A stretch of 64,000 nt of DNA from a virus: IMG/VR virus record IMGVR_UViG_3300045988_012220, positions 38,228 to 102,227 of that record; one strand, written 5' to 3'. The stretch's first letter is position 1, and the number at the start of each line of letters is the position of its first letter. Below are positions 8,618 through 61,138 of the stretch, piece by piece. Both the position numbers and the translations under genes were made by a program. The notes beneath the pieces were generated by a model, which did not search any database, was not told the origin of the DNA, and saw only the letters and a program-made list of their open reading frames with translations.

Positions 8618-9637
8618 ATGAATAATTCAAGTTCTTTATTAAATAATCTTCAGCTCTACCGTGGTAAGCGTTTTGCTGACTTGGTAGACGAAAACATGAT
8701 TGCTAATGCAATGCTTACAAAGCCTCATGAAGTAGCAGGCTTGTTGTCATTGGTTTTTGGTACAAAGGATGATGGTATTTCAACTACCATCGACTTGTTA
8801 ACTGGTGGTCTTGGTTCAACCATGACTATCGAAAACAGAGAGTATGAGTGGTCTGTAATGATTGATGCTGACCACGCTGTTAATATCCGCTACGCTAAGT
8901 GGAATGGTAAGGAGATTACTCCTAAGTCAATTACAGATGGTTTGACTCCAGGTATTAACAATACTCCTATTTATCTTGGTCTTGAGGAGAAGTTCTTCGG
9001 ACCTGGAGCAATCCTTGCATTTGATAACATCAACTTCCAGGTACGTGTAAACGGTACTCCATACCAGGATGGTAGCACATGGGTATATGAGACATATGTA
9101 GCAGAAGGCTTCCAGGGTTCTTATATCCCTTGTGAGTATTTGCTTCCAGGTCGTCAGGTAGACCGTATCGGTTCTGCATACGAGGAGTACAGTGATGAGG
9201 CAGATATCATCAACTATCAGACTCCATTTAAGATGCGTAATAGCTTGATGACTATGCGTCTTACTTACGATATCACAGGTGATGCTTACTCTACAGTATT
9301 GGCTATCGCTTTGACTGATCCTGAGACAGGTAAGAAGTCTTATTTGTGGTCTGACTATCAGTATTGGAAGGCTCTTCGTGAGTGGAAGAAGAGAGAGGAG
9401 AAGCAGTTGCTGTTCGCTCACTCTAACCGTAATGCAGATGGTACTTACAATTTGAAGGGTACTAATGGTCGGTTCGTTCCAATCTCTGCAGGTTTGTTCG
9501 AGCAGATTGCTCCAGCTAATGTACGTTACTACACCAAGCTGACTACAGAGTTGTTCGAGGATTACTTGTTCGACCTCTGCTATAACATTATCGGTACTAA
9601 CGAGCGTAAGTTCGTTGCTTTGACTGGTGAGATGGGT
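8618..9637 (+). CDS. major capsid protein, exon 1 (340 codons)
   Basis: This is an uninterrupted ORF with no TAG. It sits after the scaffold-like gene in the head module. The reading frame hits TAA at 9638-9640, exactly where a group I intron-like sequence begins (gggt|taa). Confidence 0.75.
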
Positions 9638-9908
9638 TAACTTTATAGCTCCCTGTAGCAGTAATGTTACTTGAAAATCTATTTAATTTCTGGGAAGCCC
9701 AAACGTTTAAGTCGTGGGTAATCAGAAGCGAAGTCTCGAAAGAGAAACGTTCAACGACTATCCGAAAGGAGTAGGGTTCAAGCGAACCCGAAATGATAGA
9801 CATCCTAATTGGGATGAAGATATAGTCTGATCTCATATGAAAGTATGAGGGCTTTTAATGATCGCAATAAAGCCAATCTGTAGTAGCGATACAGGTTAAA
9901 CATAAATG
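9638..9908 (+). ncRNA. group I self-splicing intron (271 nt, no ORF) in the capsid gene
   Basis: It contains gttcaacgactatc and gaagatatagtctgatctcat followed by a ctcat...atgag hairpin, and ends in aacataaatg. As I remember it, agatatagtctg plus a terminal acataatg matches the 3' core of the phage T4 td group I intron. The 5' junction gggt|taa also resembles td. The flanking ORFs join in frame (…TGEMG|IREFDRILKE…). Confidence 0.7.
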
Positions 9909-10421
9909 ATTAGAGAGTTCGATCGTATTTTGAAGGAGAAGGCAGCTAGCTTTAACATGATTGATACACACTTCATTACAGGTTCTGGTCAGGACTTGAA
10001 GTTGGGTGGTCAGTTCACAACTTACACTATGACCAATGGTATTGAGTTGACAGTTAAGCGTTGCGCTATGTTTGATAACATGGAGATGTTCCGTCAGCTT
10101 CATCCATTGACAGGTAAGCCATTGATGTCTTACACATTCTTGTTCGTTGACCTCGGTCGTCGTGACGGTCAGGCTAACATCGTTAAGGTATGTCGTAAGG
10201 GTCGTGAGTTCGTACAGTGGTGCACTGGTGGTTCTGTATTGCCAAATGGTTATGCAAACAACATCAACACTATGCGTTCTAACAGCCGTGATGGTTACCA
10301 GGTACACTTCCTTGGTGAAGAGGGCATCATGTTGAGAAACCCATTGTCATGCGGTATCTTGTACTGTGATGCTGAAGACCAGGAGTCTATTGCAGTTGAG
10401 AACAGAGCAGCAGAGCTCTAA
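9909..10421 (+). CDS. major capsid protein, exon 2 (170 codons plus TAA)
   Basis: Track ORF 9906-10421. Its apparent ATG (9906-9908) is preceded by in-frame TAA 9903-9905, and its G is the proposed terminal G of the intron. The exon has no TAG. Spliced product is 510 aa. Confidence 0.7.
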   Translation: MREFDRILKEKAASFNMIDTHFITGSGQDLKLGGQFTTYTMTNGIELTVKRCAMFDNMEMFRQLHPLTGKPLMSYTFLFVDLGRRDGQANIVKVCRKGREFVQWCTGGSVLPNGYANNINTMRSNSRDGYQVHFLGEEGIMLRNPLSCGILYCDAEDQESIAVENRAAEL

Positions 10422-11253: not shown

Positions 11254-11267
11254 TAAACTAACGACGT

Positions 11268-11984
11268 ATGACGCACAGTGATATTTATACTAAGTTTATG
11301 ATTGAATATGACAAGGCAAATATAACTTCGTCATATCCGTCGCTAACTGAATATGAAATTGCAACAATATTAGATAAAGCATACTTAGCTTTAATAGCTC
11401 AAAAATTAACAGGGAACAACCCAAGAAGATCTGCTTTTGAATCTGATGTTAAAGCAATTGAAGATTTAAGACCACTAATAAAACAAGCTTTATTGCATGG
11501 AGAACATAGCAATGTTGTTACAAATGAATATATTTATTCATTAAACATACAAGATTATCTGTATTACGTTTCTAGTACAATATCATTAAATGCTAATAAT
11601 AGTTCTATAGATGATCAGAAACATATAATTCAGTCAGTAGATCTCATATCTCACGACAATGCAAATAAGTTCAAGTCTACATCAACTAATTTACCTTGGG
11701 TTAAGAATCCTGTATGCTATATAAATGATAAGCTTATACACGTTTTAATTGACCCGTATGACGTTAAAAATAACAAAGGTGATATGGTGTTAGGCTTAAC
11801 ATATATAAAGTCTCCTGCTAAATTTGTAAAAGGGACAAGTTTGGTTGATTTTGGAGATACTGAATTAGAGATAAACGACACCGTGGCTGAAGAGCTTGTT
11901 AATTTAGCAATTATAATGTCTACTGAGATTGTCGAATCCAGTAGATTATCTACTAAAACAAATACTAGACCACTAGAATCATGA
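11268..11984 (+). CDS. head-module protein, unknown function (238 aa)
   Basis: An uninterrupted ORF with no TAG. Its TGA stop overlaps the next start (ATGA at 11981-11984). Confidence 0.8.
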   Translation: MTHSDIYTKFMIEYDKANITSSYPSLTEYEIATILDKAYLALIAQKLTGNNPRRSAFESDVKAIEDLRPLIKQALLHGEHSNVVTNEYIYSLNIQDYLYYVSSTISLNANNSSIDDQKHIIQSVDLISHDNANKFKSTSTNLPWVKNPVCYINDKLIHVLIDPYDVKNNKGDMVLGLTYIKSPAKFVKGTSLVDFGDTELEINDTVAEELVNLAIIMSTEIVESSRLSTKTNTRPLES

Positions 11985-13434: not shown

Positions 13435-13517
13435 GATAAGAATAATTTTAACGTGGAAAGCCCAGCTGGTTAGGTCCAGTATAATTAATTAGGGTGAGTA
13501 GAAAAAATTAATATATT

Positions 13518-14642
13518 ATGATTACATATGTAAATACCGTATTGGTATCAAATAATGGTGGTGATACACTCGCTACAAAGGAAGAGCTTGCAGGCAAGCA
13601 GAAGAAGGGTGATCTCAAAGAGTTGGTTGGTAAGCTCGTATTTATGAATTGCGACCCAGCTGCTCAGGATGGTTCAAACATTGAGGATATTTATGCAGTT
13701 GATGAGAACTGTGATAGATTTAAGATTGGCGTTGTAACTAGTGATAGTTTCCAGAAGGCTGATAAGATGGGTAATGTAACATATATTCCTGTTGTTAAGT
13801 GGTCAAATATTATTAACGCAGCAGACATTAAGTCTATTACAAAGCTCGACTACAAGGACGATACAGAGGATACAATCTCAATTGACTTCTCTACAATTCC
13901 TGCAGAGACTTTAGATATCCTTTCAGCAGGTGGTTGCCCTGTAGTACTTCGTCTTACTTTTAAGGATATGCCTATGCGCTATCGTAAGTGGACTGAGTCT
14001 TATAGCTACGTAACAATGCCTGGTGATGGTATTCAGAAGATTATGCAGGGTCTTGTTAAGGATATTGTACGTGCTTCAAAGCGTCAGCGTGTATACGCAA
14101 AGATCGATGGTACTAAGCTCGTTCTTGAGGCAATGAAGTACGATGATGATGAGCAGGCTGTAACAGAGAATGTTTATGCAAAGGTTCGCTTTGATGCAAA
14201 TGCTTATTGGATGAATCCACAGGCTCCAGGTTGGGCAGCTAATAACAAGTATGATCTTGGTGTTAAGTTTGTTAAGCAGGAAGGTGTAACTTATCCTGCA
14301 TCAGCAAAGCTTGTACGTGATCGCGAGCGTTCAGCATTTGATTATCAGGGTGTACTTCATCGTTGCTGCTGGTATGATCCACAGCCTAACATGGTTACAA
14401 ATATTGACAACCATTACGGGGGTATTACTATCGAGTTCGAGAACCAGTATCATACAGCTGATGATCTCTGGCGTAGAACAAAGCAGACAGTAGAAATTTA
14501 TGCTTCTGACAACGGCACAGAAATTGGTGCCGCAGAGATTGGCAATGGCCTCTTGGCTAAATTGGGCAAGATGGTTGCTAATCGTCAGAACATCGCTAAC
14601 CCAGTTAGCAATTCAACTGCGTACGACGGTACAAAGTATTAA
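13518..14642 (+). CDS. abundant-looking structural protein, unknown function (374 aa)
   Basis: An uninterrupted ORF with no TAG, followed by a strong intrinsic terminator. The TAG-free status plus its own terminator suggest high expression. Confidence 0.8.
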   Translation: MITYVNTVLVSNNGGDTLATKEELAGKQKKGDLKELVGKLVFMNCDPAAQDGSNIEDIYAVDENCDRFKIGVVTSDSFQKADKMGNVTYIPVVKWSNIINAADIKSITKLDYKDDTEDTISIDFSTIPAETLDILSAGGCPVVLRLTFKDMPMRYRKWTESYSYVTMPGDGIQKIMQGLVKDIVRASKRQRVYAKIDGTKLVLEAMKYDDDEQAVTENVYAKVRFDANAYWMNPQAPGWAANNKYDLGVKFVKQEGVTYPASAKLVRDRERSAFDYQGVLHRCCWYDPQPNMVTNIDNHYGGITIEFENQYHTADDLWRRTKQTVEIYASDNGTEIGAAEIGNGLLAKLGKMVANRQNIANPVSNSTAYDGTKY

Positions 14643-32049: not shown

Positions 32050-32056
32050 TTAAATT

Positions 32057-35000
32057 ATGGCAAATTACAATTTACTTAAGTCCCCAGCAGAGGACTATTT
32101 TAGAGGGTAGGCTAAAAAATTTGGTACAACATTACCAAATCAACGCAAATCCGTTCCTAATAAAAGGACTTAGGCTAATGTACCAAGTTATATATCAAGA
32201 CAATCTGGTTCAAGATTAGAATCTGATATAATGCCGCATGGAGATTGGTATAAGCCTAGTCAAAAATCTATTCAGAGATAGAAAAACGCTATAGCTGAAT
32301 ATGACTGGAATAAACATATTGACAGCTTATACAAGCAGCAAGAAAGATCAAATAGGCAAAAGATCGATGCTCAAGACGACTCGGAAGGCTTACTTTCTGA
32401 CACAGAGAAAGAGAAGCAATCTAAACTCGAAGAAGATGCCCTTCATCAGGAATATTTAAAGAGTCCGCTGCATGCAATATTCGGTTCTATGGGTTCTCCT
32501 TTGACCGGATCTTATGATGGTCTTGGAGAAACATTATTTAATATTGGATAGAGAGCTGGTCTGTTCTCTGCTTAGTCTAGCGATCTTGGAATAGAAAGCA
32601 CAAAGGGTAAGATTGCTCTCGCGCAAACAGACCAAGCTAAAGCAGATGCGTGGGCTAAACGAGAGCGATTAAAAAGAGATTTAAAATCAAAAGAAGATCA
32701 GTGGAACTATCTTAAAGCTAATCCTAAAGCTTAGGTTAAAGGTGATGCGTGGAAGGATACATATCTTCTCGGATAGGATCTTCTTAAGACTTACGATTAG
32801 TTATAGGATAAAGACCTTAATGAATTAGCAGACGCGTACAAAGCTACATGGATGAAAGATCACACATCTATGTGGGAAGGGTTCTAGGCTGCTGTAACAA
32901 AGATGTTCGCTTCTACAAATGATACATTTGATGGTACTGGTAGATCCAAAGAACAAATGGCTAAAGATTGGCTTGATAATTATAATAAATAGTTGTCTGA
33001 TAGATTCGAGAAAGCTCATCAAGGAATGAGTTTGGATCAAAAAGAGATTGAAGCTAATCAATTTAAAGCTAAACGCGAACAGGATCTCAAGGATTATAAA
33101 GAAACTCTTGATGACCAAATGCGTAGAGCTTCTAAATGGAAGAAGTTCTGGAACGTCAGCAAACATGCTGAGAATCTTGCAAACATACATGCTAATGATG
33201 ACCTTTTAACACCAGATTATTGGTTATGGAATTTACCGCAGCAAATGGGTTCTTCTTGGTCTTCAGACACAGGTAATATTGGTAATCTTATCACAACGGC
33301 TGGTACTATTGGTTCTTTTGCTTTAGGCGCAGCTGGACATCCAGAAGCTGGTTTTGCTTTGTACAACGCCGCTAATGCAGCAGCACTCCCATTTAACTTA
33401 CAAGGTGCATAGGATGAGAACTACGCTGAAATTGCTCAGCGTTGGACATAGAACTACCAATAGAATCTCAACAAATACGAAGTATAGGAAGCGTTCGGTA
33501 AAGCTTAGGGTATTTCTGCATCATATAAAGACTTGCAGAAGCAATCTGTAAAGTTCGCGATATAGAATGGTATGTCTAAAGATGATGCTGAAAAGAGGTA
33601 TGATTTAAAAACGCAGCAAGGTAAAGAAAAAGTTCTCGGAGACTATTTGATGGGCATTACTAAGAGTAACGACCAACGTTTGTCTAAAGCTAAGCTTGGC
33701 ACCACAAAGGGTCTTGAGCAGTAGTTTATGATAGATAATGCTAGAACCATGGGTACTGAAGTTGTGCAAAATGTTATATCATACGTACAGCCTGGTAATA
33801 GTCTTTCTAATCTATATCGACAAGCTGTATATAAACTTCCAACAACCAAACTTGGTGCCAAACTTGCTACAAGTAAAGCTGGTAGACTTGTAATAGGAAC
33901 AGACTACGCTCTTGCTGGTCTTAACGGAGCTGTTGAAAGTAAATTTGCACAGGCTGGGCAGTATATTAATTCTCTTACAAGTACAGCTGGCAAAACTGGA
34001 GCGAAGATTGGTTCTACAACAATGGATATTCTTGGTGGTGGTGTTCTTGGACACTATGTTGGTGCTGGAGTTGGTGCTGCCGCAGGAGAAGTTGCTAGAG
34101 GAGTAAAGGGGCTTGCAAAAGAAATTATGCCTCAGGCTCTTAAAGATGCTGGCGTAATGGCTGGAGAGGCTATATCCAAGAAAGCTGAAGCCTTAGCAAC
34201 AATGGTTGGCGCTAAAACATTAAAAAGGAAATTGTTAAAGGCGGCAGTTAAAAACCCTAACACAATGACTGTTTTAAAGATGCTCAAAAAATACGGAATT
34301 AATACTGTTAGAAGCGGATTGATAGACAGAGCATCTGAGGGTAATGAAGAAATTGTACAGCAGTTGAATGCTAATGCTGCTGAAGAATTTGCTAAGACAT
34401 ATGGATACGGATCAGCCGATTTGCTTAGTCTTGCGTTCCAGGATATGGCTTATAGTAAAGAGGTGTCAGACTTCTATAAAGGTATGTTCGGCCTTGGTGA
34501 GTCTGAGCTTTACAACGATATGGAGATGTTGTCGAACTGGCGAGGCGGTTTTGCTATGGGTGGTATGCACCCTATGGTAGCCATGAACATTTATCACGCT
34601 GTTAACGACATTAAGAATACTGTACAAGTAAAAGACGCCATAATGCATAGTGCACTTCTTGATAGAGAACAAGGAAAGATGAATAGAGCTAGTAATGCTG
34701 TCATCTCAGACCAGATCTCTAAGGGAAGATATAATTAGTTAACTACAGAAATACAGTAGCTCAGAGAAGCTGATTTGAAGCGAGAGAGACCGCGTTTCGG
34801 TGAACAATATTGGAATGACTTACAGTCTAATGTGGAACGTATTTCTGCTCTCGTAAACAATAAATAGATTGAGCAACAATATCGCCTTAAAGGTATCAAC
34901 AAAGGCACAGAGCAATACAATGTAGCTATAGCTGATAGAGCTAATATCGAGCAATAGTTAGCTGCCAATAGAAAAGCTCAGTAGGAAGCTGAAGTTAGGC

Positions 35001-38000
35001 TTCAGTAGATTTACGGACAGTAGGGTTATCAAAACCAGGTAGAATAGGCTGTAAATAGGCAGGAATAGTCAAGAGATCCTATGCTGACTGCTATAAATGC
35101 AGCTACAGCAAAGACTAAGGCTATTGAGTCTTACGTTAACAGAAAGGTAGAAGAGTATAAGAAGTCTCTTGATACAGCAGCTTTACCTCAAGAAGAAGTA
35201 GAAAAATCAGTAGCAAAATATAAAGAGTCAATTAAAGATGAGGCTAACGAATATGGTGAAAGATTTGTAGAAAATTCTTAGAAGGAAGAGCACACTAGGC
35301 ACGTAAATAACTTCCAGAGAAATTCTGAAGCTCACAATAGAATGAAAGCATTGCTTACACTTAAGGCTAAGATGAACTCTATTGATGATATATTTAAGTT
35401 TGCTCACGATAAGCTTGGATTAAAGACCGTTAGACCTGATGCTAAATTGCTGTCAGCAAATATAGATAAACAAATTTCTCGTGCAAAGCAAAGTTTGGCT
35501 AAAGCTTATAAGAATTTTGACGAGAAGTCTACCGATGAACAGACATTGCAATTCTTGAACAACTTTAGCGAATCTATTGGATTTAATGATAATGAGATCC
35601 AGGAGCTCGAACAAGCTAAGGCCATGTATACAGCTAATGAATCATTACTTAACTCTACATTATCAATTCATACAGAAGGTGTTACACGTGATGATAATGG
35701 TAATCTTGAGTATAATCCAGATGAGCTTAGATATCAGAGAAAGCAGGCTGAGTTAAAGTAGAAGCTTGGTGATAAATACAAGCCAGAAGAGCATACTAGA
35801 GCTGCAGCTAAAGATGGATCAAAGAGTAAGCTTAATGAACGTATCACAAAGATTATTGATGCAAATAAACAGAATGAAAATATCGACTGGATGTTGTCTG
35901 ATATATATTCTGGAGACGCTGTAACAAAGCTTACAGAGGATTACTAGAATGATATGCTTAAAGCTGCCGAGGAAGATATAAAAGACATTAATACTCAAGC
36001 CAAATAGGCTGTAGACCCAACAGAAACTTAGCAAAAGCATGTAGCTACTACAGAGGAATTACAGAAACATGCTGAAGAATATAAGCGTCGTAGAGATAAA
36101 GCTAGAGAGCATTATAGAAAGAAGCGTAAGGCTAGAAGGAATAAAGCAAGGGTATCATTCTTACTTGGTTTTGATGAACTCGCAATGCAGTCATTCGATG
36201 GGCTTATGGAAAACGCAAAGGTTGGCTTCTATAAGTTTGAGTAGCTCTACAATGATATAAAAACTATTCTTCAAGAAGAGACTGGATAGGATGGTGGGCC
36301 TTCGGTATTAGCTTTAGCAAAGGCGATGTATATTCGTCATTATCTTACATCTACACGTAAAGAAAAGGAGAATATGAATACTCCTATAGATGTACAATCT
36401 TATGGAGCACAGGTTGCCACACATGCTTCTCAAGATACATCGTTCGATGGATATAGAAAGGCTTTAAAGCGTCAATAGAATAGAGCTATTATACATTGTT
36501 TTCACACAACAATAGCATACGACGATAATGGCGCTCTACATGTATTTGAAAATATAGACGAGATAGACAGACTTGAATATCAGTCTCATTATCCAGAAAT
36601 TGAGGAAAATGTAAATATCTCTGATAAATAGTAGATACTTGGATATCTTGCAGATAATACAGATAGGTTTGGGAATCAAGATTATTCTGATATAATTGAT
36701 ACAATATTTTCTCAGCCAAACAAAGAAGAATTATTATAGGGATTTGCGCATTATTTGGCATCAATAGATACAACTTATTTTAATTCTCAATCTATAAGAG
36801 ATGGAGAAACTATTAGAGAGCTTGCACAGGCTATAATGTTAGGAAATGACGACAGTTTTGCCGATGCACTGTTAGATAATCCGAATGGATTAGAAGATGC
36901 TAAGCAGTACGTTAAATCTGTTAGAGACAGAATGTTAAACGGCGGTCAGTATAGAGTGCTTGATACAGATATTCCTATTTATGGGTATGATGACAAAGGC
37001 AGAGCTATACAATCATAGGCAGATATTGTCCTTGTTGATAATGATGGATAGCTGCTTGTTGTAGATGTCAGGTCTTCATTTAAACCAGATCTAAAAACCA
37101 GAATGCTTGGTAATTAGAAGTCCAACGGTCGAGCTAAAGAAACAATGATCCAGCAGGAATAGAGATAGCTTCAAAGGTTAAATTAGGTTCTTTATGATAC
37201 ATTTGGCTCTAATATTGAAGGTACATACGTAATGCCATTCTATTACGATAGAACATCACGCGGAATTGCAGCAGAGCCTGTATTTAAAGTAGAAATGCTT
37301 GATTTTAACAAGCCTGTAACACCTTATTACAATAAGTCTAATGAAGATATATCTAATGAAGTTGTTAAACCTTTGTAGGATAAAGTAAATGAATTAAAGG
37401 AAGATTATCAGTAGTTGCTTGATAGTATCACAGAAGCTGGCGACAAGAAATACTCAGATTCTCATGCATTGCTTGATACATACAATATCTTTAAAGAAGG
37501 GTCAAATAAGGATGAATTATTGCTTCAGATGAGAGATCTTCACTCAGCTATAGAATCTATCCAGAGCTTAAAAGAAGACGCTTAGATGCGCTTAAATTAG
37601 CTCCTGTAGCCTAAATAGCACGAGAACACTGTGCCAGAATTCTACCCAGAAGATGCTTTTGATCACGTTATTGTAGATGAGCAATATTAGGCTGGTCTTG
37701 ATACAGTTCACGAAATCTGTAAGAAGCTTGATACGCTATTAAGTTCTATCACGGATCTTAACATTACGACAGCAGACGAACGAGCTCAAGTTAATGAACT
37801 CATTTACTCAATATATGATGCCTAGACAGCACTTGATCAATTCTACGGCAGCGATCAGTTTAAAGTTGGTGACACTCTTCCGGAGCAAAAACTTATAGCA
37901 GCTGCTATTAACAAGCTCGTAAACAATAGGATGATGTACGGAGATGCTGCAAATAAGGCTTTACAAATGTGGCAGTCTCAATTTGCATCCAATATTGGCA

Positions 38001-41000
38001 ATCCTAGCTTTACTTATTTCAACAAGATTAAGTCATTTCTTGCTACATTTGATGGCGAGTTTATGAATAGCCTTGTTGGTAATAAGAGCTTATAGAGATT
38101 CTGGAGTACAGTTATAAATGACTAGCTTAAGTTCTTGGCTGATAATGCAAAGAATGTACAGAAGACTAACACAGCTCTTGATAATGCGCTTACTGATACT
38201 ATTTATGATGCAGAAGACTTTATTAGAGAATATAATCAGAGATTCCCTGTGGATCCAAACATTGATGATATACTTGATGCAAACAGCGCGTAGAGTATCA
38301 ACATGATTGACGATCAATGGAGAGAACTGTATAGTGATACTACTAAGCACTTCCCTGCATTCAGAGCTAAACTTGATCCACATTACTTCTCTATAGCACT
38401 TGATCCGCATTTGATTTATCCAGACGCTTCTGGGAAATCTGGTAATGCTGAGCTTATATGGAGAAATAATGAAGTATAGCTTAAGCTTACAGACTCTAAG
38501 GGAAGAACGATCTTTATGACATTTGATCAAGGTAATGATGCTGGTCCTAGAGGTGTCGATCCAGTATATTTTGCTAGAAAGAAAGCTGCAGATTCTGTGT
38601 TTGTATAGAAAGTTAAGTATATGCTCGACTTTATGAAAACGCATCCAGGATACCATATAAGCATGAAATTAAGCCGTTCTAAGGGCTCAATTAAGAACGG
38701 TGGAGAATTATAGCCTGTAAGTAAATTCTTATTCGCAGGAACGCTTAATTAGCATGATTTGTACAATATTACATGCGATGCTGGTAATAGAATAGGTTTC
38801 CTTAAGGCTACGCAAAACGTAAACACCGGTGACGTAACGAAGATGGTATATGGTGGTCCAGAGCTGTCAACTTTAATTAGCGGATTTGATCTTGAATATG
38901 TAAAACGTACAGCTATAACACAATCTGGTAATATCGTATACTTCTACGATACTGGTCAGACTGAGAAGACTGTAGATAATAGATGCATTGGCACACCATT
39001 AATATAGCCTAAGTTTACAGCTGGCCAAGGCGGTTAGGCTAATAAGATTGCAGACCTTATATGGTATAAGTGTTATCAAGGCTTAAATGAGTATCAAGGT
39101 TATTCTATAGATGATTTACTTAAGTAGGTTCTTTATATTAAGGCTGATAATAAAGTATTAAATGAGAAATATAACTCAATAGAAGGTCTTGTTACATTAG
39201 ATCCAGCTAACAAGAGAGTTATTATAGGCAATGTCATTTACCCTACATAGAACCCTAGTGTAGACTACGCTAATATCTATAACGCGCTGTGTAATATGTA
39301 TATGACAAAAGACGCCGCATTTGTTCAGTAGAACATGCAGCAGTATATATAGTCATCACATAATAGTGTATTAGCTAAGCTTAACGCACAATATGCATCA
39401 GACCCTAATCTTGATAAAGTGGAACTTCCAAATGGTCTTACGTTTACAAGAGAAGACTTTACTCACGACGGTAAGGGTACAACTGGTCTTGGTTATATGT
39501 TGCGCAACGGTTATTTAATGTCGTACGCAGCTAAGTTGGAGCCACCTACAGTATATGTAGACAACGTAGAGCTTGTGCAAGATCATCCGGACGAAAGTGC
39601 TCAGCAAGTGTCTAAAACAGTTGCTAAACAAGATGTTCAATAGCAACAAAAGTAGGCTGAAGACACATTTATGGCTTTGTTCTACGAACAAGATTTAAGT
39701 GAGTTTTATGGACAGAAAGAAAAACCTTCGTTTGCTAACGCTGTTGATGAGTGGGTTAGAAAAACCACTGGCATTACTCCACAATGGGTTGAAAACGAGA
39801 GGTTATCTGACGTGGCCTACAAAAAGAATAGTGCAGTACTCGCTAAATGTACAGACGCTGTTATTCAAATATCTAATTCTGTTCCTTACACTATTGGATT
39901 CCACGAAGGATTCCACAGAGCGTTAGAACTACTTGTAGAGCCATCTATTAGAGAATAGATGTATTCAGCATACAGAAAAGCTCACCCAGAAGCTGCCACA
40001 GAAAGAGACGTGGCTGAAGGTTTAGCTGACTTATTTGTTGATTATATGCTTGGCACAAAAGATGCTAACGCCATAAAGAAACAAGGATGGATTAAGAGAA
40101 ATGTAAAGAAAGTAGCTAACAGATTAAGCATCTTATGGCATTATAGAAACAATGCTAAAACAGTTCTTACTTTGTTCAATGATATCAAGTCTGGGAAATA
40201 TGCAGATAAATAGGTAAGTAAAGAACAGTAGGATAGGTTTAAAAAGCTGTTTGGCGAAGACTTGCATTATGAAATAAATGGACGCAAATTCGATCATATA
40301 GGATCAGCTGCCGAGAAAGAGCATATGGCTAGAGCTCTTGGATATATTATAGTAAAGTCAGCTAAAGATGCTACGGATATATATGATGCTGTACATGACT
40401 CTTCTGAACTTCCTATCAAATATATACCAATGAGAGTTATAAATAACCTTATTGGCGAGCCTGGTTCTGTTAAGCCTGTTCTGAATGGATAGTATATGTC
40501 TGTGAATTCGGTTACTCCTACACAGCAAGCGTTTAGAGAAGTGTTTTACGAAGAGTTAAACGATAAAGGTAACATTGTATTCCCTAATTTCTCAGCTATA
40601 TCAAAAGAGGTATAGAAGTATCTTACCGAAATAATGGATGCTTATGACGGCAAATATCAGCATGATGACGATTCTGAGACAAGTGACCAGGAAGAGAATG
40701 ATTATGGAAAGTCTATCGAAAGATACGATAAATCTGCATTCGAGTTCAATAAACTTGATTCTGTAAGTAAACCAGTAAAAATGTTCTTTGCCACAATACC
40801 TTACTACAAGTTTAATGATAATGGCAAACTTACACTTGATATATCTAAGAATATATATGGTATTCCTACATTTATGCCTATTAAGTAGGTATTTAATGTA
40901 ATTGTTAGCAAATTACATGATGTTAAAACACCTTTAGACTTATTAAATAGACTACAAGAGCTGTCTACGTAGAATCCTATGTACATGGCGATCTATTAGA

Positions 41001-44000
41001 AGTATAATGATCTATACAATTCTATATATACATTTAACGACGATGATTAGCTTGAAAAGATAGACTTCGATAAAGAGGCGTTTATGATACAGATATTTAC
41101 AGCTATCAAGGGTCACGAGCATAACTTTATTATTGGTAGGTCTATACGCGATAAGAATGGAGGCGTAGAAGTTAAAATATCTGATGCAAACTTCGATAGA
41201 GACGCAAGAATGTACCCTAAGCTTTGGAATTCATTCTTATCTTCTGGCCAATCTGGCTTATTATAGAGATCAGTTGGGTAGAATGGACAATTACTTCTTT
41301 CTACAAAGTATAACACAAATAATACTTAGGTAGATATGCCTACAACTGTAGCAAGAAATGCATTTAGATTTATATCTCAATTTTTCTCTGATTTACAGTC
41401 GTAGATACTGAATGATTCTACTAGCGAATTTAAGATAAACGGAAGAATTAGAAGCGCAGCGTCTAATAGTGATATCGAAGTACTTAAGGATGATATATGT
41501 AAAGAATTTAATATGCTTGGCATAAACTTTACTAAAGAAATGCTCGACCATATGCTGTCTACAAAGTATAATGGTGTTGGTAGAGAGGCTCTTAAGAAAT
41601 GGATTACATCAACAGGCGTGTCTAACATTAACAGTTTTATTGATGCCGTAGGTAAAGTTGTGCAAACTAATGGTTATACAACATAGAAGGCTATAGACTA
41701 GATATTTAAGACTGGTTTTGTTAGCGAATTAGGTAACTGGGCTGGAGCTTACATGAAGATTACTACAGATAAGATGTCTAATGGTATGGATGGTACTAAG
41801 CTGTATAATGAGTCACAGAACAATAGCATTAGCAATACTACAGAGAATCTTAATAGCCACGATAAGAATAATATGGTAGTAAGGACTATTTTGTAGTCTA
41901 GCTACAATATCATGAACAACAATGGTGTAAATATGGGTTCTATTGTAGCAAAGCAATTACAGAACGGAGAAGATTTCAATATTAGTATTTATACTCCTAT
42001 TGGCTTTAAGTCTGATAATCGCGGTGACAATGGCTCAAAATATAGTAATCTTGCAGAAGCCGAAGATTATATCAATAAGTTCGCAATGCTTTAGAACGGA
42101 TACTGTATATTCCCAACACTTGCCGACAAAGGTACATATATGGTTCTTGGTGGTATAAATATCCCAGGAATGGAGTTTGGGCAGTCAGATAATGGTGTTT
42201 ATACTGTATCTGGTGCTCCGAAGATGGTATTCTTAGATAGTACGCACTATTACTTACAGCCTAATCAATCTGTATTAAACTAGTTTATTGACTATGCTTA
42301 TACAGAGCGTGAAGCTATACTTGATTGTAGAGAACAACTTGGCTTACCTGTAGATAATCCTAAAGGTTTACCAGTACTTAATGATGAAGATAAGATAATG
42401 AATTATCACATCGGTAAGAAAGGGAAATAGCCTGGCGGTATTCAGTTTAAATCACTTACAACACTTAGAGTGTATGAAGATGGATAGATTAAACGTTACG
42501 AAATAAGCAAGATGTCTCCTGATGAATAGCTTAAAACTCTTAATGAGCAATTCTTCGACAGATCTAGAGAAGAGCAAGAATAGATAATGTCATTAACTCT
42601 TTAGGAGCAATATGAGAACGAAGTAGATAAAGCTGTTAGTCTTGGCATTGTTTCAAAGGATGAAAAGCTTGGTTATCTTGGGCTTAATAACATTAACCTC
42701 AATCAGAGCCAAATAGACGCCGTAGAACGCACTTTGTACGCTCAGATGTATAAGGATCTCACAGATAAAGGAATAACACCTAATACGCAAAATTTGCAGC
42801 GTACAGCACATAGTATGGCTATTACTGCTATATTACAAGATGCAACGAATAGAGCTATTATTTCATCTGAGGAAAGTTTGAGATTATATATCGGTAATCC
42901 TGGGTTCTTTAAGAATGTAGAAGATATTCAGAAACGTATTGGCGGTCTTGTATCTACTGGTGATGACAACGTTACATCTTTGTCAAATTACGACGGATCA
43001 GATGGAGAGCTTTATAGATGTGCTGAAATATCAGATTATGAAGTAGCTTCAAATGCTGATATTATGAGCGAACTTCAAGAGAAGATGCGCGATGGTGAGC
43101 TTAGAGAAATTTATGGAAACCGTTACGGATTTAAAGGTGTTGACGATTTAGATATCGGTGCAGTAAGAGCTAGACTTGTAGATGACTTTGGTGAAGATGC
43201 TGTTAAGAAAATAGAAACAAGAGCTAATAACTTCTATGAAGCCTATACGTGCGGCATAAATGTAGCTGATGGTGCATCTTATATTACAGCTGATATGTGT
43301 AAAAGAATGCTTAGAGCTAGAGGTGCATTAACAAACGACGTAGCTAAGGCTATTAACATTCTAGAAAGCTCTAATAAATACTCTTGGATGGACCAGAAAG
43401 ATGCATATAAACTTATATATGATAAAGTAAATCTTGTAACAACCAAGTATACCGCTTATGGATTTAGGGACCATACAACTAATGGGAAGAAGGTTTCTAA
43501 CTTAGCTGTACCATACTACAATAAGTTTGCATTGTTCCCTATATTCGATTGTATAGCTACTGGTAAGCTTAAGAATGTGTATGATAAGATGAAGGAAAGT
43601 AAGGTTGATAATCTTCTTATGACGTCTGCCGTAAAGGTTGGTCTACAAGGTCATTCTGAGTTCGATGGTAATACTATTAGCAAGCCGCTAAATGTTTATA
43701 CACAGAGACTTTCTGCGCTCCGCAGGCAGCTTAATACAGACCCAGAGGAAGGTGATGTTGTAGCAGCTGGTACACAGATGATTAAGGTTTGCTTGTCTAG
43801 TTTGCGACTCGATAGAATGTATGGCGATATGACTGGAGAATAGCTTAGAGATAAGCTTATGGGCTCTATCAATAAACTTTCTAAACTTGGTGTAGATAAG
43901 TTTAAAGACAGATTCTATTCTAATGGTATTATAGACCAAAAGAAGCTTAGCGAATATCTTATAGAACAACTTGGTACAAGAAATGCTAATAAGAATCTTA

Positions 44001-44500
44001 TAGACGCTCTTACGTATAATCCATAGACATGCTCAATGAATGCGCCTATTGCGTCTACTGCTGATGCAAGTTGGATGGAGTCTATGCTTATATCTGCAGC
44101 TAATAAAGATATTATTGACATCATGACTCCTGGTAGCTCATTTATTCAGAGATCAGTCTTTGCTATAGAAGGTAAAAATGGCGAAGGTAATATATAGGGA
44201 CAGGAGATCTATAATGGTAAGAGATTATAGATGATAAATAAAGAGGGCTCTATGGATGCAGTAATATCTATAGATTACTTCCAGGATATTCTTCCGAAAA
44301 ACTTGTCTTACAACGAGGCTAGACAATGGCTCTTGGATCATAATATAATTGGAGAAAGTGCTACATCTAATACGATCGGTTATCGTATTCCTACACAGGC
44401 TCAGTCATCTATACATGCTTTACGTTTTGTAGATGTTGTACCTGCTGTCAAATCCACGGTAATACTTCCAACTGAGTTTACCAAGATCACTGGTTCGGAT
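32057..44500 (+). CDS. giant virion-RNA-polymerase-type protein, exon 1 (4,148 codons)
   Basis: ATG 32057. All track ORFs from 32993 to 44231 (16 of them) share frame 2. A line-by-line scan found no in-frame TAA/TGA, only TAG. It contains HEGFH (39902-39916). The exon ends …EFTKITGSD at 44500, where the intron-like sequence begins. Confidence 0.75.
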
Positions 44501-44761
44501 AAACTATATCAATGTTCAAACCAGTATAATATAAAAAACTCCTTTAATTGCTGGGAACTCCATATCAAGTGGACAATCAGCAGCCAAGCCCATTATGGGA
44601 AGGTTCAACGACTATCGAAATCATAGTATAAGAGAAACACTTATACGAAGAAGAGAGTAGAGTACACGAAAGTGGAAATGGGGAGCTTTTAGTATATGGT
44701 AATAGTATACTAATTGAAGATATAGTCTGATCTCATTGGTAACAATGAGTTAACAAAAATG
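44501..44761 (+). ncRNA. group I self-splicing intron (261 nt, no ORF) in the giant RNAP-type gene
   Basis: It shares gttcaacgactatc and gaagatatagtctgatctcat plus a ctcat...atgag hairpin with the capsid-gene intron, and ends in aaaaatg. In-frame TAA 44711-44713 blocks read-through. The exons join in frame as …ITGSD|FDIDHLY…. Confidence 0.7.
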
Positions 44762-47700
44762 TTTGATATCGACCATCTTTATTTAGCACGTTATAACGTT
44801 AATGAGAGTGGTGGTTATGAATTTGATCCAGAAAGTGCAGAAGGATTACAGAATAGTATTATCGAAAGCATTCTTACAGTACTTAAGGATAAAAAGTCAC
44901 TTAACATCTTGTATAAGTCTATCGATAATGATACTGAGCTTGTAACAAGCATAGCTGATGAAATCCCAGAACAGGGTAATACGAAGAGTGTAGCATACAA
45001 CTTTGGTACATTACATGAATAGGTTACTCGTAAAAATGACTACATTACAGGTAAGACTGGTATCGGTCCATTTGCGTTGAATGTAACAAACCATATTCTT
45101 ACAACATTATATGGCGTTAAATTTAAAGAGTCTAGCTTTACACAAATAACAGGTATTACTGGTTTTGATTAGATTCTTGACGAAGATAATAATCAGATTT
45201 CATCTTGGTTATCAGCATTTATTAATGCCCACGTAGATATTGTGAAAGATCCATATATATCTAAGCTTAATGTAAACGGATTTACGTACAATATGATTAA
45301 CTTGCTTGCTAGAAATGGCAAGGGTAAACAAGGTCTTTATTTCTTGTGTTAGCCTATAATTAGAGAGATGGCTAAAGCTGATATAGATACTAAGTCTCAG
45401 TTTACTAGAGATCCTAAGGTATTTAGATCTGCTTTCGAAATGAGGGATAAGAGATTAGCTGAAATATTCCCTAGCGTTACCGGTAAGACAATAGACGATT
45501 AGTATATTAAAGATGCTACAGAACTAAATAAATCTAAAGGCGAACCTGCTAGAAGGGCTGAGATAGTGAACTCTGTACTCAACAATATGGATATGCTTTA
45601 GAAGATAGCTAAGAATCCGGATTTAGTCTATGCTTAGACAGAAGAGGGAGAAAAAGCTAGAGCTTTCTAGGTTAATTGCTACATAGCATGGAAGTGCCTT
45701 GAAAAGTATTCTAATGCATTAAATAGTTTGGTACAGTACACTAAGATTGACACTCGTAAACAGGGTAAGAATTTCCTTGAAATGCAAGCTTATCTTAGAG
45801 GTTATGAGAATCTTACAAACCCAGAAACTGATTAGCTGTTTGATATGGATTCTATCAACAATCTTATACATGGTACTTGGATTGAGCAGAAAACAAGAGA
45901 CGCTATTCAAGAACCCATGAGAGTTATGGCTGGACAATCATTCTAGGGTACACCTTAGTTTATGGAGTAGCTTATCAATTTATCCGACGACTTTAAGTAT
46001 AAAACAAACGACAGAGAGTCTGATTTACTTAGAAATGCTAAGACTATGAAGAAAATATCATAGGCTGCTAGTAGTTAGATTAAGGCTAGATATGCTGTTA
46101 GATTAGCTAAATCTTTAGGTATTGATATTAAAGGTTTGTTCGACGGGAATGCTACAATATTTGACAGACTTAATTCTATATAGGCTTGCATACAGAGAGA
46201 TGCATATGGTTTAGGTAGATTAAAGGATAATTATCTATTATCGCATCTCGCTCCATATATTTAGGATTAGGATGTTTTCGTAAATGGAAAACTTACCAAT
46301 AAGCCTAAATTTATAAGTGTTATTAATAGTATGGATGAAAGTAAAATGTCTGCTGATATGTTTATAGAGTCTTGGGAAGAACTTCTCAATGACCAATAGG
46401 CTAATGTAAGAAGATTTGCAAATGATCTTATATTGTATGCAATGCTTACATCTGGTGACACAAAAGGCTTTAATAAAATAGCCAAATACATTCCTATGAG
46501 TTGGCTTGAAGTTAGACACGATGAGAGCACCGTACCATTCTCTGATTATATTAGGGAACAACTTGAGGCTCCGGAAATTGATCACGATCTTATAGCTTAG
46601 AACAACTATATGGATAGCGATTTGGTGAGCAGGGCTACATTCAAAGATTACTATTATGCTTTCAATGCTTAGTACTCTCCTGCTGTAATAATTAGTAAGG
46701 ATTCTCACGAACACGACGCTTTGTATATATCAGTACGAAATGATGGAGCGGTATATAGTGATCCAACGTCGTACACATTGTATAAAAAGGTTGGAGAAGC
46801 TATGATTAATGGATCCAAACGTGCTGTATATGCGTTATTACCTAAGAGGGGATGGTCCGATAGAGATGGTCTTAATATATACGAAGCAGGTGATATTAAT
46901 CTTAGTGTAAATGGCATTCCTATGAGTCAAGAAGTCATTGAAAGTCAGCTTGATAAACTTATGACTTACTTGAGCCAGATGAAGCCAAATATTACTGACG
47001 AGTAGCGCAATAACTGGATGTCGTGGTTTAATTAGATGTATTACAATGCTAATTCAGAATATCCTACAATATCACAAGCTGTAGAGCAGCAAAGCACACA
47101 AAGTGTTAGTAATATTAATCTTGATGGCAAAGGCCCTTCTGGATAGACTGTGTACATAAGCAAATAGTTATTCTATAAAGATTAGCCTCAACAACACCCA
47201 AATGTACAGTACGTGTTCACAGATAATGCTTAGTCTTATGCTAAGGCGCAAGGTTTACCTATGCAAGGTTTTGCTAATTATAACCCAGTATTAAATGTAA
47301 GTTCTGGCGCCACTGGTACAAATCAAGCTTGCATTAGAACTGGCAGCGACGGAAAGATTACACCTAACGCGTTTGGTCTTGTAGTAAAAGTTAATCAGCA
47401 AGATGCTTCTGGCAGATGGCTTGCTAAAGATGGTTGTTTCTAGGATAATCAAGGCGACATAATGGCGTTTAAGTCGTGGGTTAACCATATGCTTGCAAGA
47501 ATAGATAGAAATAAGCCAATAGTATTCCCATCATAGATAGCTCTTGGTAAAGCAGCTTTGCCTAGAGAGGCTGCAGAATGGCTTAGTTTACAATTGCTGT
47601 CAAGATTTAACATAAAATCAACAGTTTAGGAAAACACTAAAACTGGTTATACTGGCTATGGATTGTCTATAGAAGGCGTTGTGGATGATAATTATGCTAA

Positions 47701-47812
47701 CACACTAATTAAAGAAGAGTAGTAGAAGTAGGCTTTAGCATAGATTAATCTTACTAAGGAAGATATAGAAGAAGCTGAAAGAATTAGAAAACATTGCAAA
47801 GGAGGTAAATAA
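44762..47812 (+). CDS. giant virion-RNA-polymerase-type protein, exon 2 (1,016 codons plus TAA)
   Basis: It continues frame 2 through track ORFs 44759-45022, 46721-47005 and 47261-47443 to TAA 47810-47812. Only TAG interrupts the frame (checked). The spliced product is 5,164 aa with about 126 TAG codons. Confidence 0.75.
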
Positions 47813-54585: not shown

Positions 54586-55050
54586 TTATATAAGGTTTTC
54601 TAAAAAGAGTGGAGCCTCGTCTGCCAACGGCATAGCGTAATCCGTTTCTACAGACAAGGTGCTATTACATAGCAATAATCTTCCTATATCTGAAGTAAGA
54701 CCCCAAAACTGCAAAATTCGAGTCCTTTCTTCTAGAGTCGGAGAGATTACTCCATCTTTCATCTTACATATCGATGGCGTCATACTAAGCTTGTACACCA
54801 TATATGGTATATTATTGCACCGTTTAGTATAAACGCCTTTAAAACTAGGTGATTTAATAAAACGTCGTGCTCTATCTATAGATAAAGCATTCCGTACATC
54901 GTCGTTAACAACGAAGTAGATGCTACGATAATCCCCCGGATTGTCAGGGTCATACGTATAGATATCTATAAACCCTGATTTTTCAGAGAAGTCATCTAGC
55001 TTAATATCGTTCATAATCAAAGGCATTGCTACCTTTGCAAATTTACTCAT
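54586..55050 (-). CDS. hypothetical protein (154 aa)
   Basis: An intact ORF under the standard code with a TAA stop. Its start overlaps the upstream TGA (ATGA). Confidence 0.7.
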   Translation of the reverse strand: MSKFAKVAMPLIMNDIKLDDFSEKSGFIDIYTYDPDNPGDYRSIYFVVNDDVRNALSIDRARRFIKSPSFKGVYTKRCNNIPYMVYKLSMTPSICKMKDGVISPTLEERTRILQFWGLTSDIGRLLLCNSTLSVETDYAMPLADEAPLFLENLI

Positions 55051-56087
55051 AGGTTTAAAGTTTCGCTACCGTCTCCAGTGTAATAATCATAGCTATGGTC
55101 CCATTTATCTGTTCCCAAATGCCATAAATACACTCTCATGAAATCATGTATCGTTACACCTCTAGAAGTAACTTGTGGAGTAGCTAATCTGAATACTCTT
55201 ATCTCGTTACTACCTGTTGTATCGATAGCTACGATATAGAATTCAAATCTCCATTTGTTAATTTCACCATTACTTAATTCTAACACATTAGTCAGATACC
55301 AATATACTGCTTCCTGATAAAAACACAACTGCCTACAGTAATCAAATTCTTTCATACTGTCTTCAAAGTGCCATAACTTAGCTGTAGTTTTGATATCCAT
55401 AATTGTACACGTTCTTGTATCAAAGTTAAATGTACAACTATCAAGCAATGATTTGCACGCAATAGAAGTATAAGCTCCGTGATTTAGTTCATCTACAATC
55501 CAGTAATCCCAGTTTATCTGGAATTCGTGGTATATCTGAACATTTTTATAATCACCAGCCCTTTGTACTAGTCGGTTTGCTAACTTATGCTCTTCAACAT
55601 TATGCTGAATCTTCATAAGCTGGTCTAAGTCATACTGAGATATAAGTATCTTCTTAGACTTAATAGCTTCGATATAATCCTTATACTCTACGCTTATTTT
55701 AAGCGCTTCTGAGAGGATTTTATCTTCGCTCTTTCCAACTATACTATAAGACTTGCGATAGGCCTCTGAGAGCTGTTTATTTAGCTCTATTTCAACGGTA
55801 TTTATTAAGTTTTCGCAGAACTTTTGTGCTTGCGCACTTTTAGGCTTATCGCCATCGAACAGAACGTAATCATTCCAGAACTGATCTGGTTGAAGCAGGA
55901 ACTCGTGTATCATTGTTCCTTTACGTAACTGTGGCAAATCTAAGCCTTTCTCTTTACCATCTAACATATTACGAAAATAGGTCGGCCCTTTATTCAAGAA
56001 CCAGCCTATCGCACTATTACTAATGCGCGTATTATCTTCGTAGTATGGAATGTCGTATTCTGGTATTTTGTACTCTGGTGTTTTCAT
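55047..56087 (-). CDS. PD-(D/E)XK (RecB/YqaJ-like) nuclease (346 aa from ATG 56087)
   Basis: An intact ORF. IMDIKTT followed by CRQLCFYQEAVYWY fits the D..(D/E)xK plus QxxxY pattern of RecB-family exonucleases. I prefer ATG 56087 (MKTPEY…, overlapping the upstream TAA) to the track start at 56117. Confidence 0.6.
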   Translation of the reverse strand: MKTPEYKIPEYDIPYYEDNTRISNSAIGWFLNKGPTYFRNMLDGKEKGLDLPQLRKGTMIHEFLLQPDQFWNDYVLFDGDKPKSAQAQKFCENLINTVEIELNKQLSEAYRKSYSIVGKSEDKILSEALKISVEYKDYIEAIKSKKILISQYDLDQLMKIQHNVEEHKLANRLVQRAGDYKNVQIYHEFQINWDYWIVDELNHGAYTSIACKSLLDSCTFNFDTRTCTIMDIKTTAKLWHFEDSMKEFDYCRQLCFYQEAVYWYLTNVLELSNGEINKWRFEFYIVAIDTTGSNEIRVFRLATPQVTSRGVTIHDFMRVYLWHLGTDKWDHSYDYYTGDGSETLNL

Positions 56088-56977
56088 TAGCATCCTGCAC
56101 AACAACCACAACAACAATCATCTGAAGCTGCTTTCTTCTTAACATTCTTCAGACAGTTATCTTTACAAGAGCGAGCATGAGGCTTTATGGCACCTTTTGA
56201 AGAAAGGTTCATATCCTCAAACAACTCTTCGAATGTCGTAGTAGGATAGTTATTAGCTTCCTTTACGAAAGAAACAATGTTATCAAAACTACATACCTCG
56301 AAGTTGTCCTTAATAAAGTCTGTTAAAGACTTTACTTCTTTCTTGTCGTTAAGCTTATCATTCAATACCTCCATTATAAGAGATGGAGACATCTCGTCAA
56401 ACTCACGCCAATAACGTATACGAGAACAACGATCTATCAGATATTCTGATATCTCACTGTCATCGTTACAGGTAAACAAAATCATATGCTTACCCTTGGT
56501 ATCAGATCCATCCAATACCTGCAACAAGAAAGAGTCGTCGTAATCCGCAAGAACTTTATCAAGCTCGTCAAACAAGAAGCAAACACTTGTGTCACCGAAC
56601 TTCTCTACAAGATTTCGAAGGATATGTGGACGTATATTTTTGTCTATGTTCACGATCGGAAGACCGCTCTTATTGGCAATCATCTTAGCCATTACTGTCT
56701 TTCCTGATCCCTTTAATCCTGCGAGCATTACACCAGTAAATCCGCCTTCAGACAGATTATAGCTATTAATAACTTTGTCTATGAAACGTTCGTCACGTTG
56801 TGTACAATATACCTTAGAAGGTAAAGATAATTCACCAGACTCTTCAAGTGTTATGGCATCTGTGAAACGATCTACAATAACATTATAAACCATTCCTGGT
56901 GTCAAATCACACTCAAGTCCTTCTGTGTTAAACTTAAAGTTTACGCTCTTACCTACTTTCAAAAATTTCTTTTCCAT
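56087..56977 (-). CDS. AAA+ ATPase with Cys-rich C-terminal tail (296 aa from ATG 56977)
   Basis: Walker A is GLKGSGKT and Walker B is CFLFDELD. The protein ends …SDDCCCGCCAGC. The track start at 57001 is a TTG; the first ATG gives MEKKFLKVGK. Confidence 0.75.
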   Translation of the reverse strand: MEKKFLKVGKSVNFKFNTEGLECDLTPGMVYNVIVDRFTDAITLEESGELSLPSKVYCTQRDERFIDKVINSYNLSEGGFTGVMLAGLKGSGKTVMAKMIANKSGLPIVNIDKNIRPHILRNLVEKFGDTSVCFLFDELDKVLADYDDSFLLQVLDGSDTKGKHMILFTCNDDSEISEYLIDRCSRIRYWREFDEMSPSLIMEVLNDKLNDKKEVKSLTDFIKDNFEVCSFDNIVSFVKEANNYPTTTFEELFEDMNLSSKGAIKPHARSCKDNCLKNVKKKAASDDCCCGCCAGC

Positions 56978-56997
56978 ATTTACTGATATTATAATAC

Positions 56998-57384
56998 TCA
57001 AATATTGGTTTTTATCTCTTCTATCATCTCGTCTACCTGTTTATGGTTACGGACAAGATAACATTTCATTTTACTTCGATGTCGCTTAAGATAATGCTTA
57101 AACAATTTCCATCTAAGTGGGAACGAATCTCCCATAAGGCCTTTACATTCTACTACAAACCCTTTTCCTATGAAGTCAGGTAGATATGTTAAAGGTCTTA
57201 TTTTTTCGCCTAAATACTCGAACTTATCCAGTAATACGAAATGCTTTGGCTCATATTTAACTGGTATTCCAGCTTTCATAAAAGCTTCATAAGTATAGCA
57301 TTCGAGTTTGCTCCTAAAATGGAGGCCATACTTATCGACTTTAGTCGCATTTCGCACCCTGCCTTTAGATTTCTTGCCTATCAT
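56998..57384 (-). CDS. small PD-(D/E)XK-type nuclease, DUF1064-like (128 aa)
   Basis: FRSKLECYTYEAF…YLPDF…VVECKG matches, from memory, the DUF1064 / restriction-endonuclease-like pattern (SK.E…PDF…E.KG). Confidence 0.55.
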   Translation of the reverse strand: MIGKKSKGRVRNATKVDKYGLHFRSKLECYTYEAFMKAGIPVKYEPKHFVLLDKFEYLGEKIRPLTYLPDFIGKGFVVECKGLMGDSFPLRWKLFKHYLKRHRSKMKCYLVRNHKQVDEMIEEIKTNI

Positions 57385-57679
57385 AATAAAAATTCTTTCC
57401 CCTTATCTTGGATACAGAAGTTTTATTAAAATAGACAATTTCGCCGTCAGTTACTTTTTGTTCACCTTCATGATGGACACATGCACATATACATCCATCA
57501 TCACTATAACTATCCCAGATAGTCATTTGCAATTTATTTGGAAGACAAATGCGCATAAATCCACCTTTGCTAAGGTGAATTTTCTTAGTCAGCTTCTTTG
57601 TAAGCCATTTATGCAATAGAGGAGACATTACTGCACCTCCCAGCACACCAAGCAGGCATCCTATTACTACATCAATCAT
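57365..57679 (-). CDS. small membrane protein (104 aa)
   Basis: An intact ORF with an N-terminal hydrophobic segment VVIGCLLGVLGGAVMSPL. It overlaps both neighbours. Confidence 0.55.
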   Translation of the reverse strand: MIDVVIGCLLGVLGGAVMSPLLHKWLTKKLTKKIHLSKGGFMRICLPNKLQMTIWDSYSDDGCICACVHHEGEQKVTDGEIVYFNKTSVSKIRGKNFYYDRQEI

Positions 57680-58643: not shown

Positions 58644-58950
58644 AACTTATAAGTTAGGTACCTATATAGATTGCAAATCTATTAATATAAGAGATTCTAT
58701 ATATTAGTATGCATACATAAGTACTTTCCATTGGGTTCCGTCGAGTTTTTTATTGTTTTGTTCTAAGCTGTTCAAAAAATCTCGTTTACATGTAGTTTAG
58801 CATGTATTTTACGTACATAATCAATACTCAGCTTTAGCCTCTACACTTTATTAAGTTATATTCGGAGCTATTTAGAAGTACTTTCTTCAAATAGACGAAT
58901 AGCCGTTCTGCCTAGGCTGTTAGCCCCTATACCTAGCTCTTTTTGCATAG

Positions 58951-59030: not shown

Positions 59031-59041
59031 TTATAAATTAG

Positions 59042-59572: not shown

Positions 59573-59676
59573 ACTTGTTGTATAGTTTGACACTCCTGCT
59601 ATGTAGATCGTATAAGAACCATCTACCGGATTTCATACAGTCAAGTAGTATTTCTATTTCTTCAGGCGTAAATTCC

Positions 59677-61113: not shown

Positions 61114-61138
61114 GATACAATGATACTAAAAGTTTTAA

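Follow-up and report, generated by a model that had tools for sequence, protein, structure and literature searches.

The gene for the major capsid protein (MCP) in the 64,000-nucleotide stretch of viral DNA analyzed here (the window) is broken into two open reading frames (ORFs), which raises the question of whether the phage carries two capsid genes or a single interrupted one. A 340-codon ORF (8618-9640) closes with TAA at 9638-9640, straight after ...LTGEMG, and a 171-codon ORF opens at ATG 9906-9908. The original prediction held that the 271 nt starting at this stop codon are a group I intron and that the capsid frame resumes behind it. The stop codon, the gap, and the compatible frame are all present, and joining 9637 to 9909 gives an in-frame 510-aa protein. 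As judged from the sequence comparisons described below, the segment 9638-9908 (plus strand, 271 nt) is very probably a functional, ORF-less, td-like group I intron of subgroup IA, inserted between MCP codons 340 and 341 of a TAG-recoding, Burzaovirus-like (Suoliviridae, “Delta”) phage.

The boundaries of the insertion were established by comparison with uninterrupted genes. Exon 1 (8618-9637, plus strand; 340 codons, without an in-frame TAG in the ORF list) and exon 2 (9909-10421, plus strand; 170 codons starting IREFDRIL... and followed by a TAA stop) match a single PHROG profile (11589, major head protein) contiguously, at positions 5-334 and 335-492, respectively. The nearest database genomes are those of the crAss-like phages cr7_1 and cr124_1 (Suoliviridae, Oafivirinae, Burzaovirus), in which the MCP genes are uninterrupted. 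Exon 1 is 99% identical to residues 1-340 of the cr7_1 and cr124_1 proteins, and the conceptually spliced 510-aa product aligns with both at 99% identity without gaps. Alignment of the DNA with intron-less relatives, where the target site reads GGTGAGATGGGTATCCGTGAGTTCGAC, places the insertion point unambiguously between GGT and AT(T/C). Moreover, GEMG|IREFDR runs across the site in 82/82 intron-less loci (2 from RefSeq phage records and 80 from IMG/VR), and the structure of the ΦcrAss001 capsid protein gp32 (PDB 7QOF) aligns continuously through the junction. In all of these comparisons (PHROG 334|335, cr7_1 and cr124_1, the 82 loci, and 7QOF), the joined protein is continuous and has no extra residues, as had been anticipated for an interrupted gene. 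The spliced junction is expected to read ...GAGAUGGGU|AUUAGAGAG... in nucleotides and ...ALTGEMGIREFDR... in the peptide, spanning FVALTGEMGIR and EFDR. A further junction peptide expected after splicing is ITGSDFDIDHLYLAR.

The intron begins with the codon TAA, a translation stop in unspliced RNA, and its last three bases are AUG (9906-9908). G9908, the last inserted base relative to the 82 intron-less alleles, is the terminal (omega) G. The ATG of the second ORF does, as proposed, contribute this terminal G; it is missing from all 82 intron-less alleles and is a false start of “exon 2.” Within 9638-9908, the ORF list contains no plus-strand ORF of at least 40 aa. A minus-strand ORF of 79 aa (9597-9836) spans the exon-intron boundary and was treated as spurious because it straddles it.

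The fold of the inserted RNA was explored with covariance models and energy minimization. In an Rfam scan of the whole window, the group I intron model RF00028 matched 9628-9849 over its full length (model positions 1 to 253) with 93.2 bits and an E value of 1.1e-22, against a gathering score of 50; this strong match is the outcome that the original prediction had looked for. A permissive Rfam scan of the window found no introns beyond the two at 9638-9908 and 44501-44761. The unconstrained minimum-energy fold has a z score of −3.0 versus shuffles and recovers P1, P2, P4-P6, P7, P7.1, P7.2, P8, P9, and two more 3′ hairpins. What had been noticed as a gap full of stems resolves into an explicit P1-P9.2 map with only standard pairs and four GNRA loops, and the strings singled out at the outset are in place: gaagatatagtctgatctcat at 9817-9837, the ctcat...atgag hairpin, which is P9, at 9832-9849, and aacataaatg at 9899-9908.

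In this map, all of it on the plus strand, P1 (9634-9651) consists of the exon bases GGGU and the intron bases UA (9634-9639) paired over 6 bp with UAGCUC (9646-9651), the internal guide sequence. The U9637·G9648 wobble, present in the covariance-model alignment, the minimum-energy fold, and the pair check, marks the 5′ splice site, a boundary also set independently by the intron-less alleles. P2 (9655-9670) is capped by a GUAA tetraloop. The catalytic core (9678-9849), in which every pair is standard, extends from P3 to P9 and comprises P3 (9678-83/9795-9800), P4 (9688-93/9722-27), P5 (9697-9701/9715-19), P6/P6a (9728-50, with a GAAA loop), P7 (9756-60/9823-27), P7.1 (9761-70, GAAA loop), P7.2 (9774-89), P8 (9801-16, with J8/7 next), and P9 (9832-49, GAAA loop). 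Two peripheral 3′ hairpins (9850-9897) complete the structure, namely, P9.1 (9850-55/9869-74) and P9.2 (9875-82/9890-97). In an established classification that reportedly goes back to Michel and Westhof in 1990, subgroup IA is recognized by two additional hairpins, P7.1 and P7.2, which follow P7 and precede the 3′ strand of P3. Since both hairpins are present, the capsid intron was assigned to subgroup IA (T4 type: td/nrdB/sunY, IA2).

The same element recurs in public data. Public assemblies contain the exact 171-aa pseudo-ORF in 114 blocks, and many of these assemblies are genomes of ∼100 kb. Ten other assemblies were fetched, and each has this 271-nt intron inserted at the identical nucleotide, with a score of 94 to 97 bits; copies were found in ENA, Logan, and NCBI assemblies. 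An exact search of IMG/VR for the 5′ junction gave 0 matches, and the 80 IMG/VR MCP loci are all intron-less at this site. Across the 11 copies, 840/840 pair cells are standard, compared with 36 to 45% in slid controls; a shuffle control is uninformative for this count, because every cell pairs. P1 is invariant, and the nine variable stem columns all keep pairing, via G·U intermediates. Double-sided compensatory changes are absent among these 11 near-identical copies.

Compensatory support comes from one divergent lineage. Two loci of a related crAss-like phage (L097 and L098) have a homologous intron of 991 to 992 nt at the identical MCP site (GEMG|F/I-REFDR), and their exon 2 protein (P0006) is 87% identical to that of the window. 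Of the 68 pairs that can be compared between the capsid intron and that of L097, 47 are the same, 7 have one-sided changes, 14 are compensatory, and 0 are broken. P1, P3, and the P7-P7.2 core are common to both forms, while P2 (two compensatory pairs), P4, P6, P8, P9.1 (three), and P9.2 (three) differ by compensatory changes. The longer form contains an HNH_3 ORF of 246 to 266 aa in the P6 loop, with an HNH_3 domain that scores above the Pfam cut-off, and a long P5 extension, neither of which is found in the capsid intron of the window. Rfam at the gathering threshold misses such ORF-bearing introns, which were recognized by eye and from helix tables.

The variability of the intron was compared with that of the exons around it. 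Among seven intron-plus genomes, 3.3% of the intron columns are variable versus 17.6% of the third codon positions in the flanking exons (P = 7e-10), and the intron evolves ∼7 times more slowly than synonymous sites. Such low variability means purifying selection, recent spread, or both, and does not fit decay. A recent spread could account for it without purifying selection; either way, the element would be an active one.

From the fold and the boundaries, we infer that the intron is spliced in vivo. The RNA of the late transcript would fold into P1-P9.2, and an external guanosine in P7 would attack the bond after U9637, a base kept in place by its wobble with G9648 in P1. The 3′ OH released at the end of exon 1 would then attack the bond after the terminal G9908, and ...GGU would be joined to AUU..., giving a single mRNA for the 510-aa capsid protein. 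On unspliced RNA, translation would halt at the TAA that opens the intron.

Other explanations of the split gene were weighed against this one. Each ORF has its own start and stop codon and is accepted by gene callers, as would hold for a genuinely split capsid gene in which the 340-aa and 171-aa products (the latter from ATG 9906) are made separately and assemble non-covalently, the spacer RNA staying unspliced. We regard this arrangement as very improbable, given that the start codon of the second ORF is nothing but the end of the intron, missing from every intron-less allele, and that the solved capsid structure runs without interruption through the conserved segment in whose middle the two ORFs part. 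Moreover, a mere spacer would not be expected to be a full-scoring ribozyme with helices kept by compensatory changes or to evolve more slowly than synonymous sites. Just as improbable, in our estimation, is a ribozyme that no longer splices, which would make the MCP a pseudogene in defective or helper-dependent genomes. The intron allele is indeed in the minority (64 contigs with the exact exon 2 ORF versus 688 with the intact cr124_1 MCP), which would suit a decayed element. However, the allele is present in many complete genomes of ∼100 kb with high coverage (cov 650 and 185 in the contig names), both exons retain 99% protein identity in an undamaged frame, every stem substitution keeps pairing, and the constraint on the intron is stronger than that on synonymous sites.

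An assembly artefact or chimeric contig, with a foreign intron-like fragment placed in the capsid gene, has a negligible probability next to either of these, as assemblies made independently from different samples (ENA, Logan, JGI, and NCBI) have the insertion at the same nucleotide and show natural sequence variation. The evidence thus favors a functional self-splicing intron within a single capsid gene.

The distribution of this intron was analyzed at the level of alleles. Prevalence was taken from cluster look-ups, which give 688 contigs for the intact cr124_1 MCP sequence, 64 for the exact exon 2 pseudo-ORF, and about 130 for the several 340-aa exon 1 variants listed; the search with the exon 2 protein returned C-terminal fragments only and no full-length MCPs. 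By these counts, the intron allele is a minority polymorphism. Intron-plus and intron-minus alleles coexist among MCPs that are 95 to 98% identical. Over 1530 nt, six of the eight fixed or nearly fixed differences between the two kinds of allele fall at −63 to +21 nt of the site, all synonymous. Those in the first 21 nt of exon 2 are peculiar to intron-plus alleles (ATT AGA ... GAT ... ATT), and their AGA and GAT codons are also those of the HNH-bearing lineage. This clustering at the insertion site is the signature expected of co-conversion during homing.

A P10 pairing was considered as an explanation of why the codons ATT AGA follow the 3′ splice site. The candidate P10 (9641-45 with 9911-15) has just 5 bp and an offset of 2 nt, and L097 does not conserve the strand that lies in the intron; with so weak a candidate, the selection of the 3′ splice site is not fully explained. 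P10 was rejected as the cause of the codon pattern, since L097 keeps AGA even though the intron strand is not conserved there, and co-conversion explains the pattern better.

The route of mobility that we infer starts from a mobile intron. The capsid intron would be a derivative of such an element, in keeping with the 991-nt homolog at the same site, where the P6 loop encodes an HNH homing endonuclease, and the short form was probably spread or kept by homing or recombination, co-converting ∼85 nt of flanking exon. A homing endonuclease ORF is absent from the capsid intron, and no endonuclease able to mobilize it was identified in the window. Being ORF-less, the intron would need an endonuclease acting in trans, or plain recombination, to move.

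Several other observations concern the MCP genes of this phage group. Three intron-less loci (L078, L026, and L027) share the ATT AGA codons that generally mark intron-plus alleles and could represent either precise intron loss or an ancestral variant of the target. A different MCP insertion, of ∼1.1 kb near residue 130, was observed in L088-L091 (at about 1233-2343) and also in the IMG/VR loci L073-L076, L078, L081, and L082; it carries a NUMOD4 plus HNH_3 ORF, and RF00028 matches it weakly (26.6 bits in L088). The MCP fragments returned by the protein search have lengths of ∼154, 171 to 187, 217 to 232, and 288 to 300 aa, which suggest several further split sites in the group.

The second intron of the window (44501-44761, plus strand; 261 nt) is also an ORF-less group I intron. 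It splits the catalytic motif ITGSD|FDIDH (DxDxD) of a giant virion RNA polymerase (RNAP) gene (32054-47812, plus strand), which has two exons, ∼5157 codons, and 126 in-frame TAG sense codons. The spliced product of this gene matches the phi14:2 gp66 RNAP (PDB 6VR4) with an E value of 1e-21. RF00028 matches 44464-44749 with 87.1 bits, and the model misplaces P1 by 27 nt. The P1 that it proposes, which would put the 5′ splice site at 44473, was discarded, as EFTKITGSD precedes FDIDH in uninterrupted homologs. The true site is 44500|44501, and P1 is formed by 44492-44500 with 44514-44522, including a U44500·G44514 pair. The junction is fixed by the uninterrupted genes of cr130_1 and cr272_1 (...EFTKITGSDFDIDHLYLA...) and by PDB 6VR4. 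The two introns of the window are about 60% identical and end alike in ...AAAUG, which gives rise to false start codons. In cr131_1, the RNAP intron lies at the same site (GSD|FDID) and has similar 5′ and 3′ RNA ends; it contains a 242-aa LAGLIDADG_2 ORF, whereas the window's RNAP intron has none.

RNAP genes of Zeta-group phages were reported to have unexplained disruptions in the DxDxD motif (PMC7886860). Small ORF-less introns like the one described here might account for some of them, and, for at least some of the RNAP genes that the literature describes as “disrupted,” an ORF-less intron in this motif would be a simple explanation. In RefSeq, homologous giant RNAP genes go by the names “DprA-like protein,” “DNA helicase,” “exonuclease V,” and “nuclear pore complex protein-like.”

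The genetic code of the phage was examined across the window. TAG is a sense codon, especially on the plus strand of 1-54504: the longest standard-code ORF has 412 codons, and reading through TAG yields ORFs of 4219, 2231, and 1555 codons. Most plus-strand structural and transcription genes have 1 to 5.6 TAG per 100 codons. TAG was not observed in the MCP gene (8618-10421), in a few of its neighbors (11262-11984 and 13512-14642), or in nearly all minus-strand genes (54586-63999); the virion gene with the highest expression appears to do without the recoded codon. The window contains no tRNA gene, suppressor tRNA included, and a suppressor tRNA must therefore lie elsewhere in the genome. A tmRNA-like (tRNA-like) match on the minus strand (58948-59030; 19.6 bits against a gathering score of 47, E value of 7e-4), where ARAGORN finds nothing, is probably due to chance.

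Two introns in such genes mean that the capsid protein and the virion polymerase would depend on RNA self-splicing. It is conceivable, although we think it unlikely, that the ORF-less introns in the capsid gene and in the DxDxD motif of the RNAP gene, the most critical of the late and virion genes, are not just passive remnants and are kept because they destroy the HNH and LAGLIDADG sites of competing crAss-like phages, a form of immunity during co-infection; they may also make capsid and polymerase output a splicing-dependent timing or host-state checkpoint.

The main value of these results is practical. ORF callers are misled in the way that had been foreseen: in more than 100 public assemblies and in GenBank TPA records, the capsid gene appears as two unrelated “genes,” of 340 and 171 aa, and the 171-aa exon 2 fragment has GenBank entries of its own under the title “MAG TPA: major capsid protein” (DAH54950.1 and DAH97156.1). 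As a consequence, MCP-based detection, phylogeny, and abundance estimates truncate or miss the intron alleles of a phage group that is very common in the human gut. A 306-aa exon 1 fragment is labeled Pseudomonas aeruginosa (MGU0659426.1), which looks like contamination. Furthermore, ORF-less introns escape searches for endonuclease domains, so that the intron load of crAss-like phages is probably underestimated. The occurrence of paired ORF-less and ORF-bearing forms at single sites provides a clean natural system for the cycle of intron gain and loss in uncultured phages.

Among known introns, that of the T4 td gene had been named as a close likeness, and the T4 record agrees. The td intron has the same GGGT|TAA 5′ junction, with an in-frame UAA, and contains AGATATAGTCTG and AACATAATG. 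In pairwise core alignments, its J6/7-P9 core is 78.7% identical (74/94 aligned bases) to window positions 9751-9849. P7 and J8/7 are near-identical in the two introns (AGAUAUAGUCUG), the P7.1/P7.2 regions align base for base, and both 3′ ends are of the ...ACAUAAUG type. The 5′ halves, however, are only about 55% identical. The td intron, of subgroup IA2, is 1017 nt long in the T4 record and has the ORF of a GIY-YIG endonuclease (I-TevI) in its P6 loop, whereas the capsid intron is ORF-less, has a GAAA-capped P6a, and measures 271 nt. The host genes also differ, being a nucleotide-metabolism gene for td and a structural gene here. The core resembles many other phage introns, including those of Bacillus, Staphylococcus, and Vibrio phages. 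Vibrio phage 1.084.O has an unannotated region with 94% identity to window positions 9746-9793 (48 nt, P7 to P7.2), indicating that the IA core is conserved across unrelated phages.

Within the crAss-like phages, group I introns are typical of core genes (MCP, PolB, and primase) in the Delta group, where they were recognized via their endonuclease domains (Yutin et al. 2021, PMC7886860), a finding repeated in a 2023 review (PMC10136315). The capsid intron shares with them the phage group (Suoliviridae, equivalent to Delta), the host gene, the intron class, and TAG recoding; the RefSeq relatives cr7_1 and cr124_1 lack it. Having no ORF, it would be missed by a search for endonuclease domains of the kind used in that work. 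The accessible parts of the text and supplements of PMC7886860, which give no site-level detail, describe neither the codon 340|341 site nor the ORF-less form. MCP group I introns are thus already published for this phage group (PMC7886860), and the present intron is one more case. It stands out by its exact site and its lack of an ORF, by having an HNH-bearing homolog as a counterpart, and by the co-conversion signature and the mis-annotation that results.
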